Of a DNA stretch of 64,000 nt, positions 9,074-54,859 are shown piece by piece. The DNA comes from Dehalococcoidia bacterium. Its GTDB lineage: Bacteria > Chloroflexota > Dehalococcoidia > UBA2979. The notes beneath the pieces were generated by a model that was not told where the DNA came from, ran no database searches, and was given only the letters and a program-made list of their open reading frames with translations. The stretch is taken from the NCBI GenBank assembly GCA_965219085.1, contig OZ244720.1:3200001-3264000 (forward strand), in the 5' to 3' direction. Each line of letters begins with the position of its first letter. Within the stretch, counting starts at the first letter, position 1. A program made the translations under genes and the position numbers.

Positions 9074-10492
9074 GTGGTAGCGGGTGTCCGCGACCCCATC
9101 GAGATAGCCGTCCTCTCGCACGACGGCATGCAGGACGTCGCGCCGGGCGTGGCGGCCCTCGCGGGCATCACGCCCGCGGCGGCCGCGGCCTCGCCTGCGC
9201 GAGGGCGTCCGCGCTTCTTCTACGGCTACGCCATGCTCGGCTCGCTGATGGGCATCCACTGGTACATGAGCGCCGCGTTCGTGTACGGCTTCGGCGCGCT
9301 CTTCGTGCCCATTCTCGATACGTTCGGATGGAGCCGCGGGATCGGCTCGCTCGCGGCTTCGTTCCGGCAGCCCGTGGGCGGCGCGATGGGGCCACTCGTC
9401 GGGATGTTCGTCGACCGCTACGGGGCGCGGCCGGTCGTGATCTCGGGCGTGCTTATCACGTCGTTCGGGCTGGCGTCGCTGAGCTGGATACAGTCGCTGT
9501 GGATGCTCTTCGCGTCGTTCGGGATCATCTCGCTCGGCATGAGCGCGACGCTCGGCGTCGGCTTCAACTCGGCGATCGTGAACTGGTTCGTGCGCAATCG
9601 AGGGCGGGCACTCGGCATCGGCTACTCCGGCGCCATCCTGAGCGGGCCGTTCGTCGGCGTCGTCGTGTGGATGGAGTCGACCTACGGCTGGCGCGACACG
9701 GCGTTCATGACCGGGGTCGGGATGCTGCTGCTCGGCCTCCCGCTCTCGCTGATCGTGCGCACCCGCCCGTCCGACATCGGCCAGCTCCCCGACGGCGACG
9801 ACCCGTCCGACCCCGCGGCCGTCGAGGCGCAGCGGGTAGCCCAGTCCGGACCGCAGTCGAGCGCGGGCGAGGCATTGCGGGACCGCAACCTGTGGCTGCT
9901 CGGGCTCGTCTTCGGGCTGCTCTCGATGGGCGTCTCGGGGTTCATGCTGCACCAGATCCCGTACTTCGAAAGCCTGGGCTTCAGTCGCGCCGCGGCGGCG
10001 AGCACGCTGGCGTACTTCACCATCCTGAGCGTGGTCGGCCGCATCGGCACCGGCTTCGTCATGGACTGGATGGGGCGACGCGGCCTCGATCTGCGGCTCG
10101 TGCCTGCGGGACTGCTCGCGATCCAGGCAGTCGCGCTGTTTTATGTAGCGCACGTCCAGACCTACTGGCAGATGATCCCGTTCACGCTGCTGTTGGGCAT
10201 CTCATTCGGTGGCGGCATTCCGGCGAGGCCGATCCTGATCACACGCGTCTTCGGCCTGCGCCAGTACGGCACGATCCAGGGGACGCTCAATTTCCTCGTG
10301 ATCCCGTTCTCGGTCGTCTCGCCCATGCTGCTCGGGCTGTTCTACGACTGGCGCGGCAACTACTACGCCGCGGTGATGCTGCTGGCCGTGCTCACGACGG
10401 CCGGCATCGCCTCGGCGTTCCTGCTGCGGCTCCCGCCCGCGCCGGGTGAAGCGAGCGAGGCAACGGAGGACGGCGCGCCGAGCGCTGCCTGA
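9074..10492 (+). CDS. MFS transporter (MFS-1)
   Basis: About 12 hydrophobic segments; DRYGARP and WFVRNRGRALG motifs; start GTG 9074 after GGAAGG (alternative ATG 9128). Confidence 0.9.
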   Translation: MVAGVRDPIEIAVLSHDGMQDVAPGVAALAGITPAAAAASPARGRPRFFYGYAMLGSLMGIHWYMSAAFVYGFGALFVPILDTFGWSRGIGSLAASFRQPVGGAMGPLVGMFVDRYGARPVVISGVLITSFGLASLSWIQSLWMLFASFGIISLGMSATLGVGFNSAIVNWFVRNRGRALGIGYSGAILSGPFVGVVVWMESTYGWRDTAFMTGVGMLLLGLPLSLIVRTRPSDIGQLPDGDDPSDPAAVEAQRVAQSGPQSSAGEALRDRNLWLLGLVFGLLSMGVSGFMLHQIPYFESLGFSRAAAASTLAYFTILSVVGRIGTGFVMDWMGRRGLDLRLVPAGLLAIQAVALFYVAHVQTYWQMIPFTLLLGISFGGGIPARPILITRVFGLRQYGTIQGTLNFLVIPFSVVSPMLLGLFYDWRGNYYAAVMLLAVLTTAGIASAFLLRLPPAPGEASEATEDGAPSAA

Positions 10493-10516
10493 GCGCGGCA
10501 CGCCATCCCGTGGCGG

Positions 10517-12409: not shown

Positions 12410-12844
12410 ATGCCCACACCCGACGAAGTCCGCGCCGAACTCGCCACCGCCCGCAACGAGCTGGCCGCGGCCCTGAGCGCGGCCTCGGCCGACACCTGGG
12501 AGCGCAAGCCGGAAAGCGGCGACGGCGAGGACGCCTGGTCCGCGCGCGAGGCCGCGCAGCACGTCGTCGGCGCGGAGCTCTACTACACCAACGCCGTCTG
12601 CGAGGCGTGCGGCTACGACGGCCCCGAGAGCCCGTTCGCGGGCGGCCTCGAGCTTGCGAGCCCCGCGGAGGCGGGCGCAGCGCTGGCGCAAGCCATCGCC
12701 GCCGCCGACTCGAAGATCCAGCACGTCAGCGCGGGTGACCTCGAGCGATCGCACGAGGGGATGGGTCCGCTGCCGGACGTGTTCGAGTCGTGGAGCGGGC
12801 ACCTGCGCGACCACGCCGCACAGATCACCGCCGCGGGCGGGTAG
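12410..12844 (+). CDS. DinB/DUF664-like protein
   Basis: WSAREAAQHV and HLRDHAAQI His motifs; AAGGAG RBS. Confidence 0.75.
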   Translation: MPTPDEVRAELATARNELAAALSAASADTWERKPESGDGEDAWSAREAAQHVVGAELYYTNAVCEACGYDGPESPFAGGLELASPAEAGAALAQAIAAADSKIQHVSAGDLERSHEGMGPLPDVFESWSGHLRDHAAQITAAGG

Positions 12845-18742: not shown

Positions 18743-19042
18743 TTACAGGTTTGGCGGTTCACGCGAGCCGGTGATGCGGGCTTCATAGATCATTCGCTTG
18801 AGCTCCTCGGGATCGGAGTTACCCTTCCATCTCCCCGCCGCGGCTCGGAACGCCTCGGTTACTCGCCCGCGCGAGGCGCCTTCCTCGACTGCGCTCGCGG
18901 GGGCTGACTCTCCTTCCCCCTCGGTCGCATGCACCTGCTCTTCCACGAACACGTCCACCTGGGCGCCTTCTTCGAAGCCCAGCGGCTCCTCCGGCTCGAG
19001 GACGCCGTGCTTGTAGCGGGCCTTGATGCGCCTGAGCACCAT
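18743..19042 (-). CDS. AF2212/DUF104-like antitoxin
   Basis: IKARYKHGVLEPEEPLGFEEGAQV motif directly upstream of the PIN gene. Confidence 0.8.
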   Translation of the reverse strand: MVLRRIKARYKHGVLEPEEPLGFEEGAQVDVFVEEQVHATEGEGESAPASAVEEGASRGRVTEAFRAAAGRWKGNSDPEELKRMIYEARITGSREPPNL

Positions 19043-19135: not shown

Positions 19136-20551
19136 CTAGCGCGTCGCGACAGGGACGCGGGCGGCCGCGTCGGCAGCGGGCGGCTTGGGTCGCGGGCGCG
19201 CGTCGGGGTGTATCGGCTTCTTGGTGAACATGAAGATGAACGCGCCGAAGGAGGCGATCAGCGCCAGGCTCGCAAAGCCCAGCGTGTAACTCCCGAGGTA
19301 GTCGTAGCTGAACCCCGCCGCGAGCGGCCCGATGATGATGCCGATGGTGACTACCATCGAGGAGAAGCCGGTGATCGTCCCGTAGTACTTCCCGCCGAAG
19401 TAGTCGGCCCTGAGCGCCGTCGTCAGTGGGATGCGCGCGCCGAAGCCGATGCCGTTGAGGACCGCGAAGGCCACCACCATCCATACGCTCCCCGCGAACG
19501 CCAGCAGCGCGAGTGCTCCCGAGTTGAACAGCATCGCCACCACGATCAGGAGACGCTTGTCGTAGCGGTCGCCGAGGTACCCGCCGGCCATCTGCCCGAC
19601 CACCTGGGTGACCGTCATGATCGTCAACATCGAAGCCGCGATGGTCACCGAGAAGCCGAGGCTCTCGTGGACGTGTGCGATGAAGTGCACGTTGACCGCG
19701 CCGATGACGACGAGCGATAGCCCGTGACCGATGCCGATCAGCCAGAAGGCTTGCGTCCTGAGCGCTTGCCGGGCGTTGAAGCTGTACTCGCGCTCGGGCG
19801 CTGCCGGGGGCGCGCTCCCGGCCTCGAAGACGTTCATGCCCGAGTGCGAATTCGCGGCCTTGGGCGTCGTCTCACCGTCGGGCTTCCAGCCATAGTCCTC
19901 GGGATGGTGCCGGAGCAGTGAGGCGAGCGGCAGGCCCACAACCATGATGATGACGCCGGAGGCGAAAGCGAATGCGCGCCAGCCGAACGTCTCCATCGCC
20001 GCCGCGACCAAGGGCGCAGCGAGACCGCCCGCGGCGAGGCCGAGCATCATCCATGCGAGCGCCGTCGCTCGCCTCTTGATGAACCAGTTCACGACGGCAA
20101 CCGAGGCGGGCATGAACGAGCCGAGCGCCGCGCCGACTGCCAGCACGAGGAATGCCAGGTAGAACATCGGCAGACCGTTGGTCTGGCTGAGCAATATGAA
20201 CCCGATGCCGAAGAGGATGATCCCGACGAACATCATCTTGCGCGGGCCGAAGTGGTCGACGAGCCAGCCGTCGATCGGTCCCAGCAGACCGCTCTCGACG
20301 CGCTGAAGTGCAAAGGCCACGGCGAGGGTCGTACGGCTCCAGCCGAATTCGTCTTGCAGGAACACGACGTAGACGCCGAAGGCGTGGAACATGAGCGCGC
20401 CGCTCAGGGCCATGGAGCCGAAGCCGGCAGTCACGATCCACCAGCCGTAGAAGAATGGCGACTTGTGGCTGACGCCGCCTCCGCCGGCCCCGTTGAGGCT
20501 GACCGGGCCGGCGCCGTTGCGCCCCATCAATGAGCCAGGGCCGCCGTTCAC
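19136..20551 (-). CDS. MFS transporter (MFS-2)
   Basis: FFYGWWIV, DHFGPRK, WFIKRRATA, ADYFG motifs; about 12 TM segments. Confidence 0.92.
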   Translation of the reverse strand: MNGGPGSLMGRNGAGPVSLNGAGGGGVSHKSPFFYGWWIVTAGFGSMALSGALMFHAFGVYVVFLQDEFGWSRTTLAVAFALQRVESGLLGPIDGWLVDHFGPRKMMFVGIILFGIGFILLSQTNGLPMFYLAFLVLAVGAALGSFMPASVAVVNWFIKRRATALAWMMLGLAAGGLAAPLVAAAMETFGWRAFAFASGVIIMVVGLPLASLLRHHPEDYGWKPDGETTPKAANSHSGMNVFEAGSAPPAAPEREYSFNARQALRTQAFWLIGIGHGLSLVVIGAVNVHFIAHVHESLGFSVTIAASMLTIMTVTQVVGQMAGGYLGDRYDKRLLIVVAMLFNSGALALLAFAGSVWMVVAFAVLNGIGFGARIPLTTALRADYFGGKYYGTITGFSSMVVTIGIIIGPLAAGFSYDYLGSYTLGFASLALIASFGAFIFMFTKKPIHPDARPRPKPPAADAAARVPVATR

Positions 20552-25095: not shown

Positions 25096-26283
25096 CTATC
25101 GCTCGCCGGCCTCGAGGCCCGCGATGAGATCGAGTAGTCCGGCGGCCTCCCATGCGCGGTTGCGCTTCGACGTGCCGAGCGGGATGAGCACGCCCGCCCC
25201 CTCGAGTTCGGCGATCCCGTTGTTGACGGCGGGTCGTGTCCGCCCGGTGGCGGCGACCCCGACGGCAACGCTGACGACCGGGTGCGCGGGCAGCGCGTCG
25301 ATGATCGCCCATGCGGCCGCGTCCGCACGTGGGTCCGAGTGCGCGCGGAGCTGCTCTCGCCATGCCTCCTGGGCGTCGGCGACGCGGCCTCGGTAATCGT
25401 CGGCGAGGCGGGCCGCTTCGGTTGTGGCGGTGGCGAAGATCGACACCCAATCGGCGACGCGATCTTCTCGAAACAGCGTGAGGCCCTCGATGTAGCGGTC
25501 ACGTCGGCGCGCTAACACGACGCTGATGGGCGGAACGAACGCCGGCGCGAGTCCGCGCCGGCGCAGCACCACCTGGACGAGCGCGCGTCCGGTCCTGCCG
25601 TTGCCGTCGCCGAAGGGGTGGATCGTCTCGAACTGAGCGTGCGCGATCGCCGCCTGCAGCAGCGGGGGCAACGCGTCGTCGTTGCAGAAGCTGCAGAGGT
25701 CTTCGGTGAGTGGCGTGACCTCCTCGGGCGGCGGAGGCACGAAGTCGGCGCCGCAGGGGTTGTAATCGTTGCCACCGATCCAGTTCTGCTCGTCCCGAAG
25801 CTCGCCCGGCTGCTGCCGGCCGGCATCGCCGGCGAGGAGGATGCGGTGGATGTCCCGCAGCGCGCCGGGCGTCACACGCTCCGCAGTCGCGGCCTGCTCG
25901 ACGGCCCACCCCATCGCGTCGATGTTGGCGATGATCTCGGCGGCTTGCGGGCCAATGTTGCGGCCCGTGTCCCGGTTAGCCTCGGCGCGAGCGAGGGCGC
26001 GCGCGTCGGATTGCATGCCCTCGACCTTCGAGGACGCAATCGACTCGGTGCGGAGCAGCAGGCTGCCGAGCGGGGCAAGTTCGGGTCCCGCCCTGCCGTT
26101 GAGGTCGGCAATCGCGTTCTCGGCGTCGGAGAGCAGCCCGGCGATGTCGCCGGGGAGATCGATAGCAAGTTCCGCGATGCGCCCGGGGACGAACGCGTCA
26201 TAGCTGCACGCCCGGCGATAGCGGGCGGGAGCGTAGAGGGCCGGGGCGTGCCGCCAGGTGCGGCGAATGTGGGCGCCTCGCAT
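25096..26283 (-). CDS. Fic family protein
   Basis: Canonical HPFGDGNGRTGR motif; ESIASSKVEG inhibitory-type motif; C-terminal HTH-like region. Confidence 0.92.
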   Translation of the reverse strand: MRGAHIRRTWRHAPALYAPARYRRACSYDAFVPGRIAELAIDLPGDIAGLLSDAENAIADLNGRAGPELAPLGSLLLRTESIASSKVEGMQSDARALARAEANRDTGRNIGPQAAEIIANIDAMGWAVEQAATAERVTPGALRDIHRILLAGDAGRQQPGELRDEQNWIGGNDYNPCGADFVPPPPEEVTPLTEDLCSFCNDDALPPLLQAAIAHAQFETIHPFGDGNGRTGRALVQVVLRRRGLAPAFVPPISVVLARRRDRYIEGLTLFREDRVADWVSIFATATTEAARLADDYRGRVADAQEAWREQLRAHSDPRADAAAWAIIDALPAHPVVSVAVGVAATGRTRPAVNNGIAELEGAGVLIPLGTSKRNRAWEAAGLLDLIAGLEAGER

Positions 26284-27145: not shown

Positions 27146-27164
27146 GTGCGAGCCTCTCCGGCGG

Positions 27165-27986: not shown

Positions 27987-27995
27987 GCTATGAGC

Positions 27996-28964: not shown

Positions 28965-28966
28965 CG

Positions 28967-30709: not shown

Positions 30710-32011
30710 TCACGAATCGAGGCCTCCGTGCGACACGGGTTCGTGCAACCTCGCCGGCTCGAAGCGCAGCCGCGGCAGCCGCAGCAGGACGACGAAGAGC
30801 AGCGCCGCGACGGCAAAGGAACCGACGAACAGCACCAGCGCGAGGTCGTAGCTCCCCGTCACGTCGAAGATCCAGCCGACGATCGTCGGGCTGGTGACGA
30901 GTCCGACCTCCTCGACCACCACGATCGCGCCGAGGAGCGTGCCAAAGTGCGCGATGCCGAACATCCGCGTGAGCAGCATCGCCTCCATGATCGGCCCGCC
31001 GCCCGTGCCGACGACCCAGAACGCGATGAAGCAGGCAATGCCGATGTAGCCGGGGATGAGCAGGAGCGCGAGCATCGCGAAGATCAGCGAGATACACATC
31101 GCGATCACGACATACTCGAACCGTGAGACCCGATCGCCAATGAACCCGAACCCGACCCGTGAGAACGCGCCGCAGAGCGCGGCCGTCGAGACGATGAACG
31201 CGGCGGTACCCCTCGGCACACCGATCGATTCGTAGAGCGGGATCTGGTGGACGAGCATCCCGAAGAGCCCGAAGAAGAAGCTCGTGAGCGCGATCCCAAT
31301 CAGCCAGAAGTGCGGCGTCCTGAGCGCGGCCCGCAGCGAGAGTCCGCTCAGCTGCCGGGGCGAAGCGCCACCCTCCGGCACCGCGTCGCCGTCGGGCTGC
31401 GCGCCCACGTCGGCCGGGTCGTTGCGCACGAGCAGCCCCCCGATCGGGATGAACACGACCAGGATCGCGATGCCCGAGAAGACGAACGACGCCTCCCACC
31501 CGATGTTGTCGACCACCAGGCGCATCGGCGGCACGACCACGACGCCGCCGAGCGAGAACCCCGTCCCGAGGATGCTGAGCGCGACCCCTCGCCGGCGGTC
31601 GAACCACCTCGAGATCAACGCCTGGAACGGGATGAAGAACATCATCTGGCGGAACACGCCGTTGATGGCCGAGTAGACGTACCACTGCCACAGCTCGGTG
31701 GTCGTCGCGAGCAGGACGTAGGTTGCCGCCGTGGTGACCGCGCCGAAGAGGATGACCTGGCGCGCCCCGCGCGTGTCGACCCAGCGGCCGACGAACGGTC
31801 CCATGATCCCGCCGGTCAGCAGCACGATCGAGATGGCGCCGGACACCTCGCCGCGCGACCACCCGAATTGGGTCTCGAGGGGCTCGATGTAGAGGCCGAC
31901 CGACCAGAACGACACCCCGCTGCCGAGCGTCATCGCGGCGATCGAGCCCGCGAGGAGCCACCACCCGTAGTAGACGCCCCTCAGCCCGCGGGCGCGTGTC
32001 GAAACCGCCAT
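30710..32011 (-). CDS. MFS transporter (MFS-3)
   Basis: YYGWWLL, DTRGARQ, WFDRRRGVAL; about 12 TM segments. Confidence 0.92.
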   Translation of the reverse strand: MAVSTRARGLRGVYYGWWLLAGSIAAMTLGSGVSFWSVGLYIEPLETQFGWSRGEVSGAISIVLLTGGIMGPFVGRWVDTRGARQVILFGAVTTAATYVLLATTTELWQWYVYSAINGVFRQMMFFIPFQALISRWFDRRRGVALSILGTGFSLGGVVVVPPMRLVVDNIGWEASFVFSGIAILVVFIPIGGLLVRNDPADVGAQPDGDAVPEGGASPRQLSGLSLRAALRTPHFWLIGIALTSFFFGLFGMLVHQIPLYESIGVPRGTAAFIVSTAALCGAFSRVGFGFIGDRVSRFEYVVIAMCISLIFAMLALLLIPGYIGIACFIAFWVVGTGGGPIMEAMLLTRMFGIAHFGTLLGAIVVVEEVGLVTSPTIVGWIFDVTGSYDLALVLFVGSFAVAALLFVVLLRLPRLRFEPARLHEPVSHGGLDS

Positions 32012-38689: not shown

Positions 38690-39109
38690 CTAGCCGGACG
38701 CGGCCGCCCCCTCGAACGGGTCCAGCACCGGGACGCCGAGTTGCTCGAAGTCGCGAACGTCCCGGGTCACGACGGTCAGCCGATTCACGATGGCGACCGC
38801 GGCGATCATGGCGTCGTAGATGAGGGTGTCGGATTGGCGTTGCATCAGTCGTGCCCACTCGCGGAACGCGGCAGCGTCCACGTCGAGGACGTCGAAGGCG
38901 AGAAGCACGCGTTCAAGCCATGCATCGAGTTCTTCAGCCTTGCCCAGATCTTGCCTGCGTGTCATCTCGATGCCGACCTGTATCTCACCGATGGTGACGG
39001 CTGACAGGTGCAGCCGGCCCTGGGACACACTCCGCACCCAGCCAAGAACAGATGGATGTGGGCGGGGCCGCCGCAATTCGGAGAGCACGTTGGTGTCGAG
39101 CAGATACAT
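38690..39109 (-). CDS. vapC: VapC PIN toxin
   Basis: YLLDTNVLSE, DAMIAAVA, VTRDVRDF. Confidence 0.92.
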   Translation of the reverse strand: MYLLDTNVLSELRRPRPHPSVLGWVRSVSQGRLHLSAVTIGEIQVGIEMTRRQDLGKAEELDAWLERVLLAFDVLDVDAAAFREWARLMQRQSDTLIYDAMIAAVAIVNRLTVVTRDVRDFEQLGVPVLDPFEGAAASG

Positions 39110-39488: not shown

Positions 39489-41126
39489 CTACGCCACCGG
39501 CTGCGCACGCTCGTCGACGTGGGATCCGTCGGGACCGAGGGTGACGACGCCGACCATGCCGCCGTGGGTGAGCGTGGGCAGCCCGCCGTGCGTGAGCGAG
39601 GCGCCGTTCGATGCGGGCGCCGGTACTGCAACAGCCTCGGGCTCTTCGTCGCCCTCGCCGCGCATCTGTCGATCGGCCTCTTCGCGCGTCATGCGGCCCT
39701 CGGCGACGGCCGTGGCGGCCTGCGCCGGGGACAGCTTCGCGGCGCGGCCTGGCGTGACGCGGAGATCGCGGATCTGCTTGCTGAAGATGAAGAACGCCAG
39801 CAGCGTCAGGATCATGAGAGCCGATGCGCCCGCCACCGACGCCGGCGCGCCGATGATGTCGGCGAGGATCGTCATCGGCAGGACGCCGAGCGGCATCATC
39901 CCGAACGACATCATCAGCATCGACAGCACCCGGCCGCGGTAGCGCTCGGGTACGCGCGCCTGGATGACCGAGTTGTTCGTCGTCATGAACAGCATGCCGC
40001 CGACGTTGCCGAGTGCGAAGAAGGCGGCGGCGATGGCGAAGGTCGGCGTGAGCGCGAACGCGATGAAGAACAGGCCCTGGATCACCGCGCCCGCGAGCAT
40101 GATGCGGCCCTTGAGGGGCATCGTGTCCATGGTCGTCGAAAGCAGTGCGCCGATCAGCCCGCCCACTCCGGCCGAGGCCATGAGAATGCCGAGCGCCGAC
40201 GGTCCCATCTCGAACACTTCCTCGGCGAAGACCGGCAGCATCAGTTGGACCGGGAAGGCGAAGAGCGGCATGACCAGCCCGGTGAGGATCAACAGCCGGA
40301 TCAGCGGGTTGGTCATCGAGTAGCGGAAGCCCTCGGCCATCTCGGACATGAACTTGCCGTGGTCGGTCTTCGAGACCATGCCGTGACGCGGCAGCAGCAG
40401 CGTGGTGCCGATGGCGACGACGTACAGCAGGACGGAGAAGGTCCACACCGGGCCGATGCCGAGCGGGATGAGCAGCACGCCGGCGATCGCGGGACCGATG
40501 ATGCGCGTGACGTTCATCCCACCCATCTGCAGCGAGACGGCGTTCATCATCTTGTGCTGCGGGATGAGCTGCGGCACGAGCGCGTTCCTCGCGGGCATCG
40601 CGAGCGCGATCGTGAGTCCGAGGAACACCGAGCCGGCGAGCAGGTGCCAGAACTCGATCATGTCGGCGAAGATCAGCACCGCCAGCACCATGTTCGCCAC
40701 CGCGACGATCGACTGCGTTAAGATCAGCAGCGTGCGCTTGTTGTAGCGGTCCGCGATCACCCCGCCGAACGGCGAGACGAAGAGCATCGGCAGCGCGATG
40801 CCGAGCGCGACGAGCCCGAGCGCGGAGGCAGCATTGGTCAGCTCGAACGCGAGGTACCCGCGCAGGAGCTGGTTCATCTGCATAGCCATGAAGAAGGCGA
40901 GGTTGCCGCCGAAGTAGATGGCGTAGTCGCGCTCGCTGAGCGCGGTGAAGGTGCGGCCCCACTCGCTGAAGCTGCGCGGCGCCTTCGCGCTCGCGCGCGC
41001 CTCCATCATGCTCATCGGGCGGGCTTCCGGCCCGCCGTTCGAGGTGTGCGCGCCGTTCGAGCCGTTCTGGCCGCTTGAGCCGTTCAGGCTATTCGAGCCG
41101 TGTGAGCCGTTGGCTCCGTTGGTCAT
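39489..41126 (-). CDS. MFS transporter (MFS-4) with long low-complexity tails
   Basis: GGVIADRYNKR, PARNALVP, YRGRVLS; Asn/Gly-rich N-tail. Confidence 0.92.
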   Translation of the reverse strand: MTNGANGSHGSNSLNGSSGQNGSNGAHTSNGGPEARPMSMMEARASAKAPRSFSEWGRTFTALSERDYAIYFGGNLAFFMAMQMNQLLRGYLAFELTNAASALGLVALGIALPMLFVSPFGGVIADRYNKRTLLILTQSIVAVANMVLAVLIFADMIEFWHLLAGSVFLGLTIALAMPARNALVPQLIPQHKMMNAVSLQMGGMNVTRIIGPAIAGVLLIPLGIGPVWTFSVLLYVVAIGTTLLLPRHGMVSKTDHGKFMSEMAEGFRYSMTNPLIRLLILTGLVMPLFAFPVQLMLPVFAEEVFEMGPSALGILMASAGVGGLIGALLSTTMDTMPLKGRIMLAGAVIQGLFFIAFALTPTFAIAAAFFALGNVGGMLFMTTNNSVIQARVPERYRGRVLSMLMMSFGMMPLGVLPMTILADIIGAPASVAGASALMILTLLAFFIFSKQIRDLRVTPGRAAKLSPAQAATAVAEGRMTREEADRQMRGEGDEEPEAVAVPAPASNGASLTHGGLPTLTHGGMVGVVTLGPDGSHVDERAQPVA

Positions 41127-44026: not shown

Positions 44027-44293
44027 TCAGTGCGCTCGATCGGCCTTCGCGCGCGCCGCCCTCGGCAACGGGTCGGAGCGCCACGGATCGTGACCCGCCC
44101 GGCGGGCCATCGCGCGACGGTACGCGGGCACGACGATGAGGAGCAGCGCGCCGAGCAGGCCGGCGACGCCAAACACGCCGAACGCGGCGCCGGCCAGCGC
44201 CGCGACCGCACGGTGCCGCGCGCCATCGCTGAGCATCGCTCCGCCGATCGCCATCAGCATGGAAAGACCGAGCGCGAACAGCAGCACTTCCAC
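44027..44293 (-). CDS. Small two-TM membrane protein
   Basis: GAGGAGG RBS plus GTG; two hydrophobic stretches. Confidence 0.5.
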   Translation of the reverse strand: MEVLLFALGLSMLMAIGGAMLSDGARHRAVAALAGAAFGVFGVAGLLGALLLIVVPAYRRAMARRAGHDPWRSDPLPRAARAKADRAH

Positions 44294-44371
44294 TGGCGCG
44301 ACTCCTCCTCGACCGTTGGGCTCTGTTCCGCCCACGCGTGGCAGTGTACGGCGGGCGCCGGGCCGGCGGAG

Positions 44372-46336
44372 ATGGATGCGCTGGACGGCGACCTGCCGCA
44401 CCATGTCGAGGTGTCCACGATCTGGCTTCGACGAGGCGCCGCCGTTCTGGTGGCTTTCGCCTTCGCGGTGGTGCTTTTGGCCGCGCTGACGCTGCAGGCG
44501 CTGAGCGCTACGTTCGCCCGCGCCGAGTTCTACCCCGAGCAACTGGAGCGCGCGGACGTCTACCGCTTCATCAGCGCCGACCTAGCCGACGCGTTCATCG
44601 AGGACCTGCGACAGCTCGACGCCGACCAGTTCGGCGAGGACTTCACCGGCAACCCCGTTGCGGTCTCTGGGCTCACCACGCGCCAGGTCGCGGACGCGAT
44701 GCGCCGCGGGCTCCCGCCCGAGGACCTGGAAGCACTGCTCGCTCCCGCCTTCGAGCAGGCCGCCGAATACGCAGCGGGCGAACGGGACGAGGTCACGATC
44801 ACCATCGGCGCGGGCCGGCACGTCGAAGCCCTGGTGCGCGAGCTGACAGCCTTGATGCGCGAGTCCGGCGCGTACGGTCGCCTCCTCGACGACGAGTTCG
44901 AGCCGATGTTCCGTGAGTGGGCCGACGAGGCGCTACCGGCGGGTGAGGCGGACTCGGCCTGGCTCACGTTCCTCCGCGGCGCCGAGACCGGCGACAGCCT
45001 CGTCCGCGTGTTCAGGCGCGTCGTGACGCCCGAGTGGCTGGCCGGCGAGGTCGAGCAGTCCGCCGACGAGCTCACCGCCTACCTCGTCGGCAACGCCGAG
45101 GGATTCGAACTCCGCATCGAACTCGACGACGCCCAGGCGACGGCAGCCGCCGAGGAGCTGGAGGCGATCCTGGGTGACGCCGACGCGTACGACCTCGCGC
45201 GGGCCGCGGTGATCGAACCGGCGGTGGAGGAGCACGTGGTCGCGGCTGCCGAGCTGCCTTACGGCATCACCCTGACCCGCGAGGAGGCCCGAGCGGCGCT
45301 GCTCGAGGCCGTGTCGCCGGCGTGGGTCGAGCAACAGGCCCGGGTGCTGGCGCGCGGGGTCAGCGCGTACGTGACCGGGCAAGCCGATGGATTCGCCGCC
45401 GAGATCGACCTCGCGTCCGTCAAGGCGGACGCAGCCGCCGCCCTCACCGACGCCGCGACGGCCAACCTCGAAGCGTCGCTGCGCGACCTGCCGCCATGCA
45501 CGACCGCCGCGGAGATAGCAGCGGCGCGAGACGCGGCGCGGCGGTCGTTGCCCCCGTGTATCCCGCCGGGCGTGACCGCGAGCGAGCTGGCGAGCCAGGT
45601 ACGACCCGACATCGCCGCCTCGATCGCCGCGTTCATCGTCGAGCCCGTGCCCGACACGGTGCTGCTCACCGAGTCGGACCTCCGCGCCGCCATCCGGCAA
45701 GACGGCGGCGCGGAGGCGCTGACCGCCCTCGATGACCTCCGGGGGCTGTCCGCCGAGGGCTGGACGTACACGGACTCTGACCTCCGCAACGACCTCTCCG
45801 ACGACGATGCCGCCACGCTGGACGACGTGCGTTCGTTCCTCGGTGAGGGTTACGTCATCGAGGTCTCAGTCGGGGATGACGAGGGCCTCGAGGCTGCGCT
45901 GGACGACGTACGCGAATGGACGGAGGCGGTGAGCCGGGCTCGCTGGGTGGCATTCGTGTTCGCGATAGCGCTGCTGGCGGCGGTGGGAGCGCTGGGCGGC
46001 ACGAGTTGGCGCGGGCGGGTCGTGTGGGGCGCCGCCGCACTGCTCGCGGCGGCCGTGCCGATCGCACTCGTGTCGGGGCCGGTGTACCAGGCGGCATCGG
46101 GTGCACTGCTCGATGCGATCCGCGACGAGATCGCAAGCGACCCCCGCGCGACGTTCGCGCTCACCTCCGAGCTCCTCACCAACAAGCTCATCGACATCGT
46201 CGAGGTGAGCGCCGACGCGTTCGCAGGGAGCATCGCGCGGAACAGCCTGGTGCTCGCCGTCCTGGGCGCCATCGCGCTCGGGGTGTCGCTGTCCTGGGAC
46301 CGCATCACCGAGGCCGTGGACCGCGCCCGGGGCTGA
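44372..46336 (+). CDS. Large membrane-anchored protein with three helical repeats
   Basis: N-terminal TM, acidic helical domain, three C-terminal TMs; start uncertain (44372 or 44411). Confidence 0.7.
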   Translation: MDALDGDLPHHVEVSTIWLRRGAAVLVAFAFAVVLLAALTLQALSATFARAEFYPEQLERADVYRFISADLADAFIEDLRQLDADQFGEDFTGNPVAVSGLTTRQVADAMRRGLPPEDLEALLAPAFEQAAEYAAGERDEVTITIGAGRHVEALVRELTALMRESGAYGRLLDDEFEPMFREWADEALPAGEADSAWLTFLRGAETGDSLVRVFRRVVTPEWLAGEVEQSADELTAYLVGNAEGFELRIELDDAQATAAAEELEAILGDADAYDLARAAVIEPAVEEHVVAAAELPYGITLTREEARAALLEAVSPAWVEQQARVLARGVSAYVTGQADGFAAEIDLASVKADAAAALTDAATANLEASLRDLPPCTTAAEIAAARDAARRSLPPCIPPGVTASELASQVRPDIAASIAAFIVEPVPDTVLLTESDLRAAIRQDGGAEALTALDDLRGLSAEGWTYTDSDLRNDLSDDDAATLDDVRSFLGEGYVIEVSVGDDEGLEAALDDVREWTEAVSRARWVAFVFAIALLAAVGALGGTSWRGRVVWGAAALLAAAVPIALVSGPVYQAASGALLDAIRDEIASDPRATFALTSELLTNKLIDIVEVSADAFAGSIARNSLVLAVLGAIALGVSLSWDRITEAVDRARG

Positions 46337-46412: not shown

Positions 46413-47915
46413 ATGCTGAATCGTCCCGTCCCGGCCTCCGACGGCAGCGCAGCAGGCACCGCCCCGGCCGCCGCACCGCCGCCGCGACGGCGCGCGCCGT
46501 CGTGGTGGCCGAACATCTACTACGGCTGGTACATGGCCACCGCGGGGGCGGCCAGCAACTTCCTCGTGCTGGGCATCACGGTCTTCGGATTCGGCGTGTT
46601 CATCCCGTCGCTGCGCGACGAGATGGGCTGGACGATCGCGCAGATCTCGATCGCATTCTCGTTGCGCAGCTTCGAGAACGGGCTGCTCGCGCCGTTCACG
46701 GGGTTCATGGTCGACAAGCTCGGCGCGCGCCGGATGGCGTTCACCGGGCTGTTCGCGCTCGTCGTCGGGCTGCTGCTGTTCTCGCAGTCGCGGACCATCT
46801 GGGCGTTCTACGCCGCGAGCCTCGTGATGGCTCTCGGGCAGAGCCTCGGCTCGTTCACGCCGTTCAGCGCGGCGCTGATGAACTGGTTCACGCGCCAACG
46901 CGGCCGCGCGATGGGCCTGGTGTCGACGGGCAACGGCGCGGGAGGCCTCGCCGCGCCGGTCCTCGCGGCGATGATCGTGTACATCGGCTGGCGCGAGACG
47001 GCGATTGTCGCCGCGCTCACCATCGGCATCGTCGGTTTCCCGCTCGCGATGACGCTCCGCGACCGCCCCGAGCCGTACGGTTACGGCCCCGACGGTGTGC
47101 CGCTCGACGAGGCCGCGCGCCAGCGAGTTGCACGCGACGGTGCGGCCACCAGCGCGACGGGCATGAGTGTCGGCGAGGTACTGCGCACACCTGCGTTCTA
47201 CCTGCTCGCGATGTCGTCCGGGTTGGGCGGCGCGATCCTCGGCACGTGGATCGTGCACCAGATCCCGCACCTCGAGTCGACGGGGTTCTCGCTCACGGCG
47301 GCCGCGTCGATCGCCGGCTTCTACGCCGTGTTCCAGATCGCCATGCGCTACGTGCTCGGCTGGGTCGGCGACATGGTCGGACGGCGTCCGATGTTCGTCG
47401 CGTCCTTCGTGCTGATCGGGATCGGGCTGCTGGTGTTCAGCAGGCTCAACCCCAGTCAGTTGTGGCTCATCCCGGTGTACTACCTCACGTTCGCGACCGG
47501 GCACGCGACGTTCGTCGTGATGAGCCAGACCGTCGTCGCCGACTACTTCGGCACGAGGCGGTTCGCTACGATCCGCGGGTTGTCCCACAGCACGGCGATG
47601 CCGCTCGGCATCATCGGCCCGGTGTTCGCGGGCTGGATGTTCGACACCACCGGCAGCTACCAGATCGCGTTCACGGTGCTGTCGAGCTGCGCGGTCTTCG
47701 CGGCGATCTGCATCCTGCTCATCCGCCGGCCGCAGTGGAGCGAACTCGTCCCGGCCTCGACGCCCTCGGCGCCAACGACGCCAACGATGTCCGTGCCATC
47801 GGCGGCGGCGGCGATGGTGCCTGCACAGGCCGCGGCAGCGATTCCGGCCGTGCCTGGCGCGGCCGCCCCTGCACCCCCGTCGACGCACCGCGGCATGGGC
47901 GCCGACGGCTGGTAG
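46413..47915 (+). CDS. MFS transporter (MFS-5)
   Basis: YYGWYM, DKLGARR, WFTRQRGRAMG, ADYFG. Confidence 0.92.
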   Translation: MLNRPVPASDGSAAGTAPAAAPPPRRRAPSWWPNIYYGWYMATAGAASNFLVLGITVFGFGVFIPSLRDEMGWTIAQISIAFSLRSFENGLLAPFTGFMVDKLGARRMAFTGLFALVVGLLLFSQSRTIWAFYAASLVMALGQSLGSFTPFSAALMNWFTRQRGRAMGLVSTGNGAGGLAAPVLAAMIVYIGWRETAIVAALTIGIVGFPLAMTLRDRPEPYGYGPDGVPLDEAARQRVARDGAATSATGMSVGEVLRTPAFYLLAMSSGLGGAILGTWIVHQIPHLESTGFSLTAAASIAGFYAVFQIAMRYVLGWVGDMVGRRPMFVASFVLIGIGLLVFSRLNPSQLWLIPVYYLTFATGHATFVVMSQTVVADYFGTRRFATIRGLSHSTAMPLGIIGPVFAGWMFDTTGSYQIAFTVLSSCAVFAAICILLIRRPQWSELVPASTPSAPTTPTMSVPSAAAAMVPAQAAAAIPAVPGAAAPAPPSTHRGMGADGW

Positions 47916-49227: not shown

Positions 49228-50712
49228 GTGCCAACTCAGGAGGCACGCGTGAGCGTGACGCAGGATCGCCCAGCGGGTTCGGCAGCACCCGTGGCTGCCT
49301 CCCCACTCACCCACAGCGGCCTCAACGACCTCACGAACGGTGCACCGCCGGTCACGGCCCTCGCACCGCGCGCACCCGGGAACGGGGCTGTCGCCGACCT
49401 CGCGCCACCTCCCGCCCGCACGCCCGCGGTCGCGACGAGGCAGCCGCGCGTCTTCTACGGCTGGTGGATGGTGGGCGCGGGCTTCCTCGCCGCCTTCACC
49501 ACTGCCGGAGCGCAGGGCTACATCGCCGGTTCGTTCCTCGTGCCGATGAGCGACGAGTTGGGCTGGACGCGCGCGGAGTTCCTGTACGGCCAGACCACCG
49601 GGCAGTTCGTCACGGCGTTCGCGGGCTTCTTCGTCGGCGCGTATGTCGACCGCTTCGGGTCGCGACCGCTGATGCTCATCGGCGCGACGCTGCTCGCGGG
49701 CGCGCTGTTCGCGATCTCCGAAGTGAACGAGCTGTGGCAGTGGGTGATCCTGCGCGGCGTCTTCAGCATGCTCGGCGCGGCCCTGCTCGGGTTCCTCGCC
49801 GTCAACGTCACGCTCTCCAAGTGGTTCGTCGAGCAGCGCGGACGCGCGATCGGCCTCGCGTCGATTGGCGTGTCGATGGCCGGCATCGTGCTGCCGGTGG
49901 CGATGACCTGGTACGTCGACGAGTTCGGGTGGCGCGCGGCGTGGCGCGTGCTCGCGGTCGGCGTCGTGGTGCTCGGCTACCCGGCGGCCGCGATCATGCG
50001 GCGCACGCCGGAGGACTACGGGCTCAACCCGGACGGTAAGAGCGAGCGCCAGATGGCGAGCGGCGGGGGCGCGCGCGCCATGGCCGACTTCGCCAACTCG
50101 TTCACACGCGGGCAGGCGATCCGCACGCAGGCGCTCTATGTGCTGATCGTGACGTTCGGCCTCGGGACCCTGGGTCTGATGACCATCATCGTGCTCACCA
50201 TCCCGTACCTCACCGACTCCGGTTTCAGTCGCGGCACCGCCGCGATCATGCTCTCCATCCTCGCCATCCCGGCGGGGGTGTCGAAGCCGGTGTGGGGCTG
50301 GATGGCCGACGTCTGGTCGGAGCGGCTGTCGACGTCGCTGAGCTTCGTGATGAACGCCGCGGCGATGGTCGTGATCGTGCTGGCGGCGCAGACACAGTCG
50401 ACGCTGATACTCGCGATCGGGTTCTTCGTCGTCGGCTGGGGCATCGGCGGGCAGATCCCGCTGCAGGAGACGATCTGGGCGAGCTACTTCGGCCGCCGCT
50501 ACATCGGCGCGGTGCGCTCGGTGGCGATGCCGTTCACGATGCTGATCGCGGCGTCCGGCCCGATTCTCGTGGCGACATACGCGGACAACGTCGGCAACTA
50601 CGACGCGGCCATGTTCGGCGTCGCCGCGGCGTGGGCGGTGGCATCGCTGCTCATCCTGATCGCGCGCCGGCCGCGCCTGCCCGAGTCGAGCGAGACGCCC
50701 GCCGCAGCCTGA
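49228..50712 (+). CDS. MFS transporter (MFS-6)
   Basis: FYGWWMV, DRFGSRP, WFVEQRGRAIG, SYFGRR; start may be GTG 49249. Confidence 0.92.
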   Translation: MPTQEARVSVTQDRPAGSAAPVAASPLTHSGLNDLTNGAPPVTALAPRAPGNGAVADLAPPPARTPAVATRQPRVFYGWWMVGAGFLAAFTTAGAQGYIAGSFLVPMSDELGWTRAEFLYGQTTGQFVTAFAGFFVGAYVDRFGSRPLMLIGATLLAGALFAISEVNELWQWVILRGVFSMLGAALLGFLAVNVTLSKWFVEQRGRAIGLASIGVSMAGIVLPVAMTWYVDEFGWRAAWRVLAVGVVVLGYPAAAIMRRTPEDYGLNPDGKSERQMASGGGARAMADFANSFTRGQAIRTQALYVLIVTFGLGTLGLMTIIVLTIPYLTDSGFSRGTAAIMLSILAIPAGVSKPVWGWMADVWSERLSTSLSFVMNAAAMVVIVLAAQTQSTLILAIGFFVVGWGIGGQIPLQETIWASYFGRRYIGAVRSVAMPFTMLIAASGPILVATYADNVGNYDAAMFGVAAAWAVASLLILIARRPRLPESSETPAAA

Positions 50713-51598: not shown

Positions 51599-51712
51599 CC
51601 ACTCCGCCCGATCGACGAGCGGCGCCGTGGCTTCGCGAATGTTGTTTGCAAGCCACGGCGCGGTTCCGTACGTTCTTTGTATGCCTCTCACACCCTGATC
51701 GGGGATAGTCTC

Positions 51713-51994: not shown

Positions 51995-52458
51995 TCTCGG
52001 CGGTCGATACCAACATCCTCCTCGACCTGTTGATCGGTGACCCTGAGTACGTTAGCGAATCGGAGCAGCGGCTCAACGAGGCAGCGGACGCAGGCAGAGT
52101 TGTGATCTCGGAGCCCGTGTACGCGGAGTTGTCGCCTCGCTTCGCTGACTCAGCGGACGTCGACGGATTCCTCGACCTGACTGGTGTCGTCTTTGAGTCG
52201 TCAACCCGTCCGACACTGCATCGTGCCGGAACTGCTTGGCGAGCCTACACGCGCCGACGGCCGCGGATGCTCGCCTGCCCGCAATGCGGCGAGCCGCTTC
52301 CCGGGCGCTGCCGGGCATGCGGTGCCGTCGTTCAGGTTCGGCAACACGTCCTGGCCGACTTCCTGATCGGCGCGCACGCCGCCTCGCAGGCGGACCGACT
52401 GATCACGCGCGACCGCGGCTACTACGCCACGTACTTCCCGGACCTCGAACTCGCGTAG
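51991..52458 (+). CDS. vapC: VapC PIN toxin with zinc-ribbon insertion
   Basis: AVDTNILLD, VYAEL, CPQC..CRAC insert, ADFLIGAHA, ITRDRG. Confidence 0.88.
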   Translation: MISAVDTNILLDLLIGDPEYVSESEQRLNEAADAGRVVISEPVYAELSPRFADSADVDGFLDLTGVVFESSTRPTLHRAGTAWRAYTRRRPRMLACPQCGEPLPGRCRACGAVVQVRQHVLADFLIGAHAASQADRLITRDRGYYATYFPDLELA

Positions 52459-52475
52459 GTGCGTCCCGGCGCCGC

Positions 52476-53411
52476 CTACTCGCCTGCCTCGACCCACGCC
52501 CTGATCAGCTGATGCGCGATGGTGAACGGGGGCGGGACGCCGAAGCCGGCGTCGGGTGACGGGCCCCCGCCCTCCTCGGCCGTCGCGAGGGCACTCCGCA
52601 CCTGATCGCGGGTGAACCACTGCGCGTCGCCGATCTCATTGTGGTCGACCTCGATATCCGTGCTCGCGGCGTCGGCGTGGCAGCCGATCATCAGCGACGA
52701 CGGGAACGGCCACGGCTGCGAGGAGTGGTAGCGCACCGCGCCCACCTCGACGCCAGTCTCCTCGCGCACCTCGCGGCGCACGGCCTCCTCGATGGTCTCG
52801 CCCGGCTCGATGAAGCCTGCGACGCAGGTGTACATCGGCGCCCGGCGCGCGGTGGGGCTGGCGAGCAGGCAGCGCTCACCCCGCTCGACGAGCACGATCA
52901 CGACCGGGTTCACGCGCGGGAAGTGCTCGGCGCCGCACGTCCCGCAGCGGCGCATGTCACCGCTGACGCGCGGCGCGGTGCCGCCCCCGCAGGCCGGGCA
53001 GTAGCGGCTGCGCGCGTGCCAGTCGATGAGCGAGCGCGCCTGCGCGAGGATGCCGGCCTCGGCGAGGGGTAGCGCGGCCCCCGCCTCGCGCGCGCCGATG
53101 AACGCATCGTCGCCAACGAGGGTGTCGAGCGTCGCCGCGTCGACGCCGGTCACGTCGGCGGCGAGGTGCGGCGTCCCGTCGCGCACGCCGAGCAGCACGG
53201 GCGCGGGCGCGTGGAACCGCGCCAGTTGCGCACGGCTACGCCACGCGAGTTGCGGCGACGACTCGCCGCGGACCAGCGGGTTGAGGTCGCGGAACGCGAG
53301 GTAGCGCGCGTCGGGATGCTTGAGGGTCGCCTCGATCCACGCGCGGTCGCGCCGCTCGTTCGAGGAGCGATCGAGCGGGTTGCCCGCGAAGGTGTTGCGG
53401 ACCGAGGTCAT
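52476..53411 (-). CDS. nudC: NAD(H) diphosphatase NudC
   Basis: Zn ribbon CPACG..CGTCG, Nudix box GFIEPGETIEEAVRREVREETG, SQPWPFPSS signature. Confidence 0.93.
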   Translation of the reverse strand: MTSVRNTFAGNPLDRSSNERRDRAWIEATLKHPDARYLAFRDLNPLVRGESSPQLAWRSRAQLARFHAPAPVLLGVRDGTPHLAADVTGVDAATLDTLVGDDAFIGAREAGAALPLAEAGILAQARSLIDWHARSRYCPACGGGTAPRVSGDMRRCGTCGAEHFPRVNPVVIVLVERGERCLLASPTARRAPMYTCVAGFIEPGETIEEAVRREVREETGVEVGAVRYHSSQPWPFPSSLMIGCHADAASTDIEVDHNEIGDAQWFTRDQVRSALATAEEGGGPSPDAGFGVPPPFTIAHQLIRAWVEAGE

Positions 53412-54859
53412 GCGGCCCGCGGCTCCGAGGGGTCCGTGCGCTGAAGGAACGGGTTTTGGGAACCGCGCGGGAGCCGCAGCAGGAAGGCGACCGGGATGGC
53501 CGCGGCGCTGAGCGCGGCCAGGACGAGGACGCCCGTGAAGTAGGTGCCCTGGAGGTCGAAGAACAGCCCGAGCACCATCGGCGCGAGGACCGCGAACGGC
53601 ACCGACGTGAAGTTCGTCAGGCCCTGGATCGTTCCGAACGAGGGGAGCCCGAAGAGGCGTCCGACCAGCACGGGGCGCGACGGAATCATCCCGCCGAAGC
53701 TGATCCCGAAGAGCGAAGCGAAGATCACGATCTGCCAGTAGCTCGTCGCGTACGCGACCACGAGCAGCGACGCCGTCTGGATGGCCAGCAGGAGCGCCGG
53801 CACGATCCTCAGGTCGAAGTCGCGGCGCGCCAGGAAGTCCATCAGCATGCCGCCGAGCACGCGCCCGAGCAGGCTTACGAGCGTCATCACGGCCAGGCTG
53901 AACGCACCTGCCTCGCGGGAGAACCCGAGGCTCACGAGGTATGGAATCTGGTGCAGCATGAAGCCGGAGATGCCGGTCGACAGCACGCCGTAGATCAGTG
54001 CAAGCACCCAGAAGTTGCGGTCCTTCAGGGCCTGCCCGGAGGTCATGCCGCCCTCGACCGGGTTGCCCATCGCGATGACTTCCGCGTCGCTGTCGCCGTC
54101 GGGGTTGAGGCCCTTGTCGGAGGGCTTCGAGCGGATCAGCATCGCGCACGGGACGCCCAGCAGCAGCATCCCGGCGCCGAGGATCAGCGCCGTCTCGCGC
54201 CATCCGTAGGTCGCCTCGAGCCACACGACGATGACGACGAACGGCCCGCTCAGCGCGCCGCCCGAGAAGCCAATGCCGAGCGCCTTGCCGCGCTGGCGGC
54301 GGAACCAGTTCACGATCGCGGTGTTGAACCCCACGCCCATCGTCGAACTCATCCCGATCGAGACGAGCGAGAAGGAGAGGAACAGCATCCACAGCGCCTG
54401 CATGAACGCCAGGGACATGATTCCGAGGCCGATGCACACGACACCGGCGATCGCTGCCGGTCGCGCGCCATGGCGGTCCACGAAGACGCCGATGAGCGGG
54501 CCCACGGCGCCGCCGACCGGCTGCATGAACAGCGCCGTCAGCGAGCCGATGCTGCGGCTCCAGCCGAATGTCTCGAGGATGGGGACGAAGAGCACGCCGA
54601 AGCCGTAGACGAAGGACGCACTGACGTACCAGTGGATCCCCATCATCCCGGCGATCATGTACCAGCCGTAGAATAGCCCTCGGCGGCGGGGCGGGGCGCC
54701 CGCCGCTGCGGCGGTCGTGGTGGGCGTCGCGAGCGCAGCGGTCGTGGCAGGCGGCGCGAATGCGGCCGTCCCCGGCATGAGGTCTTGCATGCCGTCGTGC
54801 GTGAGTGCGGCGAGTCTCGCCGCGGTCGCCAGGTCGCGGGCTGGTATGGCCACGAGCAT
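53408..54859 (-). CDS. MFS transporter (MFS-7), close paralog of MFS-1
   Basis: GIHWY, HQIPY and DLRIVPA segments shared with the gene at 9074; start uncertain (54859 or 54790). Confidence 0.9.
   Translation of the reverse strand: MLVAIPARDLATAARLAALTHDGMQDLMPGTAAFAPPATTAALATPTTTAAAAGAPPRRRGLFYGWYMIAGMMGIHWYVSASFVYGFGVLFVPILETFGWSRSIGSLTALFMQPVGGAVGPLIGVFVDRHGARPAAIAGVVCIGLGIMSLAFMQALWMLFLSFSLVSIGMSSTMGVGFNTAIVNWFRRQRGKALGIGFSGGALSGPFVVIVVWLEATYGWRETALILGAGMLLLGVPCAMLIRSKPSDKGLNPDGDSDAEVIAMGNPVEGGMTSGQALKDRNFWVLALIYGVLSTGISGFMLHQIPYLVSLGFSREAGAFSLAVMTLVSLLGRVLGGMLMDFLARRDFDLRIVPALLLAIQTASLLVVAYATSYWQIVIFASLFGISFGGMIPSRPVLVGRLFGLPSFGTIQGLTNFTSVPFAVLAPMVLGLFFDLQGTYFTGVLVLAALSAAAIPVAFLLRLPRGSQNPFLQRTDPSEPRAA

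Follow-up and report, generated by a model that had tools for sequence, protein, structure and literature searches.

A five-residue motif shared by major facilitator transporters of one Dehalococcoidia lineage: a candidate docking site for a common factor

Introduction

The genome of a Dehalococcoidia bacterium (GCA_965219085.1) contains, at positions 3,200,001 to 3,264,000 of contig OZ244720.1 (the whole stretch of 64,000 nucleotides, called the window from here on), seven transporters of the major facilitator superfamily (MFS), numbered MFS-1 to MFS-7 along the window, and all seven carry a short tag of the form [ST]-H-x-G-[ML]. The question which this locus raises is whether such a short sequence, standing at different places in different carriers, is an accident of composition or a signal, and if it is a signal, what could read it. 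We examined the tag in the whole genome and in related genomes. The answer which we propose is that the tag is a real, MFS-specific, translated and functional linear motif in low-confidence (disordered) segments, and that it possibly, with a probability which we put at about 0.4, is a lineage-specific, non-covalent docking motif for one shared factor acting in trans.

Results

The source genome is a single contig of 3.31 Mb, with 69.8% G+C and a completeness of 92.7%, and its closest named relatives are metagenome-assembled genomes (MAGs) of uncultured Dehalococcoidia/Chloroflexi. Genes were called by a simple codon-usage model, which is a crude caller; the 2513 genes so obtained cover 80% of the genome. 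The 48 called genes overlapping the genome's 59 PF07690 matches were taken as the MFS set and the remaining 2465 as non-MFS. The strict motif, [ST]-H-x-G-[ML], is present in 16 of the 48 carriers (17 matches, 0.80 per 1000 amino acids) and in 13 of the 2465 other proteins (0.015 per 1000 amino acids; Fisher test, p = 1.1e-21). As the window is where the motif had been defined, a fair test must use the remainder of the genome, and there 9 of 41 MFS carriers possess it against 13 of 2465 non-MFS proteins (Fisher test, p = 1.4e-11), which answers the caveat, raised in the first-pass annotation of the window, that the motif had been defined post hoc. The same annotation had estimated that the motif is rare by chance. 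In 300 shuffles of the non-transmembrane residues of the 48 MFS carriers on average 0.22 and at most 2 carriers matched, compared with the 16 observed, so that the enrichment is far above chance both genome-wide and outside the window. The 13 strict matches in non-MFS proteins stand in folded-looking contexts. One of them (…RTHGGMNPDAVY…) belongs to an enzyme and is conserved in genomes without the tag, and the SHEGM of a DinB protein, already mentioned as a worrying exception, is a chance match, because an ortholog of 90% identity reads SHERM.

In view of near-misses in MFS tails (SHGGF, SHEGI, THAGI, THVAM, THAAL and THGAM) the core was relaxed to [ST]-H-x-[GA]-[MLIF], by which 24 tags are found in 23 of the 48 carriers with a background of 56 in 2465 non-MFS proteins. 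When the whole genome was scanned in six frames with a position-weight matrix, all 23 top matches were MFS tags in the MFS reading frame; the matrix was built from the tags and is thus circular for the MFS carriers themselves, while being informative for everything else. Five of these 23 rows bore the label of a neighboring gene owing to a +/-300-nucleotide rule, and by their coordinates they are MFS tags. The tag was not found in the tail of any of 98 non-MFS proteins with at least six predicted helices. Among polytopic proteins with tails of at least 25 amino acids it is carried by none of 52 non-MFS proteins and by 20 of 39 MFS carriers. Patterns lacking one of the fixed positions are enriched merely 2.7- to 5.2-fold, therefore all four fixed positions matter.

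The 24 tags have Thr (17) or Ser (7) at position 0, an invariant His, Gly (20) or Ala (4) at position +3 and Met (15), Leu (6), Ile (2) or Phe (1) at position +4. Around this core the preferences are looser: Leu or Val precedes it in 15 of 24 tags, although the preceding residue differs between orthologs, position +5 is frequently Ala, and position +6 is Asp or Glu in 10 of 24. Metal binding through the Met, one of the roles suggested earlier, is unlikely because nine of the 24 tags end in Leu, Ile or Phe, and the tags do not conform to Met/His copper(I) motifs, in which Met, together with His, is an obligatory ligand. A helix that begins with an N-cap and hydrophobic staple has Ser or Thr as the cap, flanked by hydrophobic residues at N' and N4, and in the AlphaFold2 model of the carrier at genome position 3144302 a helix (residues 5-24) does begin right after the Thr of the tag, with a predicted local distance difference test score (pLDDT) of 56-68; helix capping leaves the invariant His unexplained.

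Eight of the tags lie in N-tails, 14 in C-tails (including one tandem pair) and two in central loops, all of which are cytoplasmic in the established topology of MFS proteins. For the 22 tags of the terminal tails the distance to the end is 2 to about 40 residues, and some are held close to the membrane, the tether to the first or last helix being about 14-22 residues long in MFS-3 and in the carrier at 3144302. By all-against-all BLAST the tagged carriers comprise 13 of 20 OFA-like, 6 of 13 EntS-like and 2 of 3 DHA2-like transporters and 2 of 12 singletons, which bears out the claim that divergent MFS types carry the tag. The NCBIfam subfamilies checked (SfMCT/OFA, EntS/2A0121 and DHA2 EmrB) give best matches of both importer-like and exporter-like types; a cut-off is passed by just one of the 23 tagged carriers, that at genome position 561783 (TIGR00711, 278 against 230 bits), and as the other best matches fall below the curated cut-offs the subfamily names denote likeness only. 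Sequences flanking the tags are unrelated between carriers, with the exception of the paralogs MFS-1 and MFS-7. The description of the motif as movable, within disordered, cytoplasmic and otherwise unconserved segments, is thereby supported, and from these comparisons the tags appear to have been gained repeatedly and independently in at least four unrelated MFS types.

Since MFS-1 and MFS-7 are tagged near their N-termini, the first-pass annotation had warned that their tags depend on the choice of an upstream start. In the orthologs of MFS-1 (seven were compared) the sequence upstream of the GTG at 9074 is scrambled by substitutions and indels, and it is conserved from this GTG on. Between start and motif five of the six variable sites are third codon positions, the sixth being an Ile/Val change. 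The start of MFS-1 is further bounded, because in two relatives a stop codon stands 13 codons upstream of the peptide. For MFS-7 the segment from the GTG at 54853 to the motif has 22 variable sites, distributed 3/5/14 over codon positions 1/2/3. Thus in both genes the motif lies downstream of a conserved GTG start, which resolves the caveat. Three other N-tail tags (THSGL, THAGI and THAAL) end in Leu or Ile, so that their last codon cannot be a start codon. We conclude that the N-tail tags are translated.

Orthologs of the tagged carriers in the close genome G018 are 79-92% identical and retain 22 of the 24 tags; conservation in orthologs had been named in advance as a point on which the idea depends. 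Between the two genomes 90 of 96 fixed positions are identical, compared with 338 of 540 positions in the flanks (24 residues) and 15 of 24 at the x position, which indicates that the four fixed positions are under purifying selection, the core being selected and the tail not. Codons within the motif vary (Ser TCG/TCC, Thr ACG/ACC), the last residue alternates between Met, Leu, Ile and Phe, and synonymous changes occur, so the earlier proposal that conservation acts at the protein level holds. The sequence TH[RQ]GM is present in all 11 MFS-5 homologs of at least 83% identity, although the length and sequence of the tail differ, while six homologs of 71-75% identity end before the tag. The relaxed core is present in 29 of the 120 proteins listed in the MFS-5 search, in two of them within the conserved core region, outside the tail.

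These results also bear on the view that the tag has no function at the protein level and is a product of chance, a by-product of low complexity and high G+C content, or a DNA or RNA element. Such a view is encouraged by the base composition of the genome, by tails rich in Ala, Pro and Gly, and by the post hoc origin of the motif. It is at odds with the shuffles, with the replication of the motif outside the window and in a second genome (G018), with synonymous codon variation and an alternating last residue, with fixed positions conserved while the flanks drift, and with the fact that the tag is always in the MFS reading frame. We consider it very improbable.

The window carriers illustrate how individual tags behave. 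SHDGM of MFS-1 is unchanged in seven of seven orthologs and THDGM of MFS-7 is retained in six of six orthologs of 88-90% identity and in G018; both are missing from the respective orthologs in G006, the next closest genome. The tags of MFS-2 and MFS-3 are retained in G018, and that of MFS-6 reads THDGL there, while its segment is missing from G006. In MFS-4 the second unit of the tandem (L-T-H-G-G-M) is retained in all six close relatives examined (G018, G007, G008, G016, G003 and G014), and G006 has L-T-A-G-G-E at this place. The first unit is L-T-H-G-G-L here, and the same six relatives have L-T-N-G-G-T or S-P-S-N-G-G, so this copy (THGGL) is young, and the tandem records the birth of a tag. 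MFS-7 is a paralog of MFS-1 (57% identity), and the two share a longer conserved N-terminal peptide. As both have orthologs in G006, the shared tag may predate their split and may have been lost in G006; alternatively, it may be due to gene conversion. Loci L008 and L012 of a named MAG are also without the tag of MFS-1 and MFS-7.

We followed the tag in other genomes by a DNA proxy pattern (WCSCACNNSGGNATG), which has 13 sites in the source genome, 10 of them MFS tags. There are 12-15 matches in seven close genomes (G000, G003, G007, G008, G014, G016 and G018), compared with 2-7 in 12 other members of the genus, 0-7 in 22 genomes outside the genus and 0-7 in reversed-pattern controls. None of 17 proxy matches sampled from the genomes without the tag lies within an MFS gene. 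Every MFS locus of G018 and G006 was then examined for tags. G006 is the closest genome after the tag-bearing ones, its ATP-grasp marker being 83% identical as opposed to 92-96% in tag-bearers and 72-77% in other members of the genus. In G018, 23 of 46 MFS carriers are tagged (17 strictly), whereas in G006 one of 30 is (none strictly), and in 17 of 17 ortholog sets the carriers of the source genome and of G018 are tagged and that of G006 is not. Usually G006 also lacks the 10-30 residues around the tag; for the MFS-2 loop and the MFS-4 tail it has the segment, without the fixed residues. The tag is thus, in the genomes compared, all-or-none between close relatives and confined to one narrow Dehalococcoidia lineage, which argues for one shared cause.

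One possible cause resides in the carriers themselves: the tag could be a cis element acting on its own carrier or on the adjacent membrane, as a latch which inhibits the carrier from its cytoplasmic face, as a pH sensor through its His, or as an arm collecting protons where transport is H+-coupled. This would explain why it is limited to MFS carriers (none of the 52 other polytopic proteins with tails have it), why importers and exporters are tagged alike, why some tethers are so short, and why all 24 tags have the His. AlphaFold2 gives the carrier at 3144302 a core of mean pLDDT 92.6, with the tag at 56-68 at the start of a low-confidence helix, and MFS-3 a mean pLDDT of 87.1, with residues 418-433 of the C-tail below 50 and the tag as coil. 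In an alignment of 16 ortholog sets no recurrent parallel substitutions were found in the cores of 11 tagged OFA-like families in relation to G006. The models and the core alignment are both compatible with self-docking. On the other hand, the lack of parallel core substitutions accompanying the tags speaks against a cis mechanism, as do, weakly, the models, in which both tags remain undocked at low confidence, and MFS cores are universal, yet the tag belongs to a single lineage and is missing in all 17 compared orthologs of G006. We regard a cis element as unlikely. When the MFS-1 core (residues 47-472) was modeled in complex with the N-tail of the same protein (residues 1-40), both entered as a 14-row alignment, the score was 0.01, a result which bears on neither reading. 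It is because MFS cores are universal and the tag is not, and because the carriers of the next relative lack it together, that a lineage-specific reader acting in trans is favored.

Such a reader was sought among neighboring genes and by the distribution of candidate genes among genomes. No protein family is enriched within three genes of the 23 tagged MFS genes (108 neighbors). The circularly permuted ATP-grasp protein near MFS-3 was rejected, as it is present in 17 of 19 genomes of the genus including G006. The DinB_2 protein (12410-12844) has orthologs in exactly the seven tag-bearing genomes; it is nevertheless unsupported as a reader, because any clade-specific gene would be distributed in this way, and the SHEGM within it is not conserved. 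Five genes of the syntenic context are present in the source genome and G018 and missing from G006, namely those of an SBP_bac_5 protein, DinB_2, a luciferase-like oxidase, a PIN fragment and a NudC-like NUDIX protein, and none of them is an obvious reader. The suggestion that a co-occurring partner could be found by its distribution among genomes was therefore not borne out by any of the candidates tested.

The tag could also be a degron or a cleavage site, recognized by a tail-clipping peptidase, or by a membrane AAA+ protease with the help of an adaptor peculiar to the lineage, giving coordinated turnover or maturation of the carriers. Processive membrane proteases start at free, disordered termini, and many tags do lie within about 5-40 residues of a free terminus in disordered tails; their rapid evolutionary turnover would fit as well. 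Two tags in central loops do not, FtsH is single-copy in 19 of 19 genomes of the genus without a lineage-specific paralog, and no adaptor was found, although no systematic search for adaptors was made. We hold this explanation to be improbable.

Modification of the His or the adjacent Ser/Thr, by phosphorylation, AMPylation or a similar reaction of one enzyme, is suggested by the invariant His and by the restriction of position 0 to Ser and Thr, and the small residues around it recall the phospho-His loops of PEP-utilising enzymes and succinyl-CoA synthetase; such loops, like the HisKA H-box, are embedded in a folded domain of their own, whereas the tags stand in tails of low complexity, and MFS is the only domain matched. 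Hanks kinases (PF00069) were found in three of the seven tag-bearing genomes and also in G006, which has no tag of the strict form; the four tag-bearing genomes in which none was detected are 90-92% complete. Reading of a Hanks-type phospho-Thr by FHA domains, which do not read phospho-Ser, agrees neither with this kinase distribution nor with the seven of 24 tags that have Ser. The source genome has no match at E <= 0.01 to the phosphotransferase system proteins HPr (PF00381), EIIA_1 (PF00358) and EIIA_2 (PF00359). The Fic protein of the window (25096-26283) was likewise rejected, having orthologs in the tag-less G001 and G009 and none in the tag-bearing G003, G007 and G008. A covalent acceptor site is accordingly given a low probability.

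The coordinates of the seven carriers and of their tags are collected in Table 1. All eight motif instances of the first-pass annotation were found where it had placed them, each in frame with an open reading frame matching Pfam MFS_1 (seven of seven genes); its ranges are correct for the five core residues, while the leading Leu, Asn or Val which it wrote with them sits one codon outside. The seven carriers score 96-171 bits against the PF07690 profile (cut-off 33.4; E values from 2.7e-27 to 5.6e-50), and this profile search revealed no further MFS gene in the window. Six are OFA/SfMCT-like (oxalate/formate, monocarboxylate), and MFS-4, which is EntS/MFS_3-like, has TIGR00900 as its best NCBIfam match, under its cut-off.

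Table 1. Tagged MFS carriers of the window and the positions of their tags (window coordinates; E values are those of the Pfam match).
Feature	Position	Strand	Description	Pfam match
MFS-1	9074..10492	+	OFA/monocarboxylate-like carrier; conserved GTG start at 9074	PF07690, E 8.5e-33
SHDGM	9116..9130	+	tag, N-tail of MFS-1, residues 15-19	
MFS-2	19136..20527	-	OFA-like carrier	PF07690, E 5.6e-50
SHSGM	19835..19849	-	tag, central cytoplasmic loop of MFS-2	
MFS-3	30710..32011	-	OFA-like carrier	PF07690, E 1.3e-38
SHGGL	30719..30733	-	tag, 2 residues short of MFS-3 C-terminus	
MFS-4	39489..41126	-	EntS/MFS_3-like carrier (different MFS type)	PF05977, E 1.1e-48; PF07690, E 4.9e-31
THGGL	39579..39593	-	tag, first of tandem pair, MFS-4 C-tail	
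THGGM	39555..39569	-	tag, second of tandem pair, MFS-4 C-tail	
MFS-5	46533..47915	+	OFA-like carrier; start possibly as early as 46413	PF07690, E 8.2e-44
THRGM	47883..47897	+	tag, MFS-5 C-tail	
MFS-6	49291..50712	+	OFA-like carrier; start 49291 or 49228, both upstream of tag	PF07690, E 1.4e-36
THSGL	49309..49323	+	tag, MFS-6 N-tail; last codon CTC, no possible start codon	
MFS-7	53408..54853	-	MFS carrier; conserved GTG start at 54853	PF07690, E 2.7e-27
THDGM	54788..54802	-	tag, MFS-7 N-tail	

The window is a dense catabolic island, encoding besides the seven MFS carriers three family III CoA-transferases, seven enoyl-CoA hydratases, three acyl-CoA dehydrogenases, five luciferase-like oxidases and two amidohydrolase_2 genes; its block from 30.7 to 51.6 kb is syntenic in G018 and present in a compressed form in G006. 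Several neighbors of the carriers deserve a description of their own. At 280 nucleotides from MFS-3 there is an operon (26375-30430, minus strand) of ATP-grasp, Alpha-E and transglutaminase-like proteins and a 256-amino-acid protein without Pfam match; the ATP-grasp/Alpha-E/transglutaminase operon is found genus-wide. The NudC-like NUDIX gene (52476-53411, minus strand), with NUDIX-like, Zn-ribbon and NUDIX domains, is present in G018 and missing at the syntenic place in G006; it looks translationally coupled to MFS-7, as it overlaps the MFS-7 stop by 4 nucleotides. Directly upstream of MFS-5 a membrane protein of 748 amino acids (44090-46336, plus strand) has no Pfam match, and its extracytoplasmic middle portion is acidic; the G018 copy shows only 62% identity, against about 90% for the genes beside it, and none was found at the syntenic position of G006. 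A protein of 709 amino acids (35421-37550, minus strand), also without Pfam match, is repetitive and beta-propeller-like and was not found in the examined parts of G018 and G006. Toxin-antitoxin-like remnants lie on the minus strand beside MFS-2 (18743-19042, AF2212-like) and MFS-4 (38690-38908, a PIN fragment of 72 amino acids). The N-tail of MFS-4 (41030-41126, minus strand) is of low complexity and rich in Asn, Gly and Ser (MTNGANGSHGSNSLNGSSGQNGSNG…), while the tails of other carriers are rich in Ala and Pro. Outside the window, at 2604466-2616711 of the genome, an open reading frame of 4081 amino acids consists of repeats of about 50 residues (…EKLYAYALDGG…), one unit of which contains SHWGL by chance.

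Discussion

The reading which we prefer is that the core [ST]-H-x-[GA]-[M/L/I/F], in many tags with a hydrophobic residue before it and an Asp or Glu two residues after it, would be a docking motif which arose many times, within one narrow Dehalococcoidia lineage, in disordered tails and in central loops on the cytoplasmic side of MFS carriers. One shared cytoplasmic or membrane-associated factor would read it in trans, without covalent chemistry, and about half of the cell's importers and exporters of this superfamily would thereby come under common post-translational control, either by gating of their activity or by recruiting or clustering of the carriers. Binding of a partner in trans, and the effect of this binding, we infer from the pattern as a whole. 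In its more general form, in which a reader recognizes [ST]-H-x-G-[ML] on about half of the MFS carriers, anywhere on the cytoplasmic side, and switches, clusters or removes them, so that the tag would amount to a hitherto undescribed bacterial "transporter code", the proposal comes close to even odds without quite reaching them. The idea of a shared docking partner, as first put forward, has thus gained a linear motif, evidence of selection and an all-or-none distribution, while the partner itself was not identified.

Several observations weigh against docking to a shared factor. No partner was identified, and no tested candidate fits. The all-or-none distribution is essentially one evolutionary event, because it compares one group of seven close genomes with its kin. 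A generic adaptor would be expected to have other clients, so the confinement of the tag to MFS carriers fits a cis mechanism as well. The relaxed pattern was widened after the data were seen, and it is this pattern that has the background of 56 in 2465. Finally, among ten MFS-3 homologs of at least 85% identity five keep SHGGL, three have SHGDL or SDGGL and two end earlier, and G018 lacks the THVAM which the carrier at 561783 has here; individual tags are dispensable over short times.

Can the tag be compared with any known system? We found no described equivalent, and no bacterial linear motif marking a whole transporter superfamily, in the literature searched at the level of listings and abstracts. 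In inducer exclusion, according to PMC10542114, EIIA-Glc binds cytoplasmic parts of LacY, MelB and MalK, including a helix of the MelB C-tail. One cytoplasmic regulator here inhibits several unrelated transporters, MFS carriers among them, which makes it the closest working analogy. The present case differs in that HPr, EIIA_1 and EIIA_2 are missing, the five-residue core is different and sharp, exporters are tagged too, and the tag is limited to one lineage.

Other likenesses are more remote. The TonB box is a short motif near the terminus of many outer-membrane transporters by which they dock one common partner, and it resembles the tag in being common to one transporter family. It is periplasmic, at a fixed N-terminal place, belongs to beta-barrels and is widespread, whereas the tag is cytoplasmic, movable, found on MFS carriers and lineage-specific, and there is no likeness in sequence. 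Eukaryotic transporters have tail motifs such as the 14-3-3 site of the plant H+-ATPase, PY motifs with arrestin-like adaptors and dileucine sorting signals, and carbonic anhydrase II docks on the tails of eukaryotic monocarboxylate transporters. Like the tag, the eukaryotic tail motifs are short, lie in disordered cytoplasmic tails, are quickly gained and lost and place many carriers under shared control; they differ in having known readers that belong to eukaryotic machineries, and none has the sequence of the tag. To our knowledge such motifs are not known in bacteria. Targeting peptides of encapsulin cargo and of microcompartments are N- or C-terminal, stand on a flexible linker and mark unrelated clients, and in this sense are also short, movable terminal peptides, but they serve soluble enzymes that are loaded into shells, and for the polytopic clients of the tag such loading is implausible.

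Conclusions

Short linear motifs are regarded as mainly eukaryotic regulatory wiring, and few are known in bacteria. If our reading is true, the tag would give prokaryotes a counterpart to the tail-motif control of eukaryotes, and this would have originated in one genus-level lineage in which tags are still being gained and lost. The tagged and untagged orthologs of 17 carriers form a clean natural experiment, from which either a new reader or a principle of MFS self-regulation could be learned. These uncultured Dehalococcoidia possess large sets of MFS carriers adjoining catabolic paralogs, and a global switch on the uptake of organic acids would bear on the processing of dissolved organic matter.

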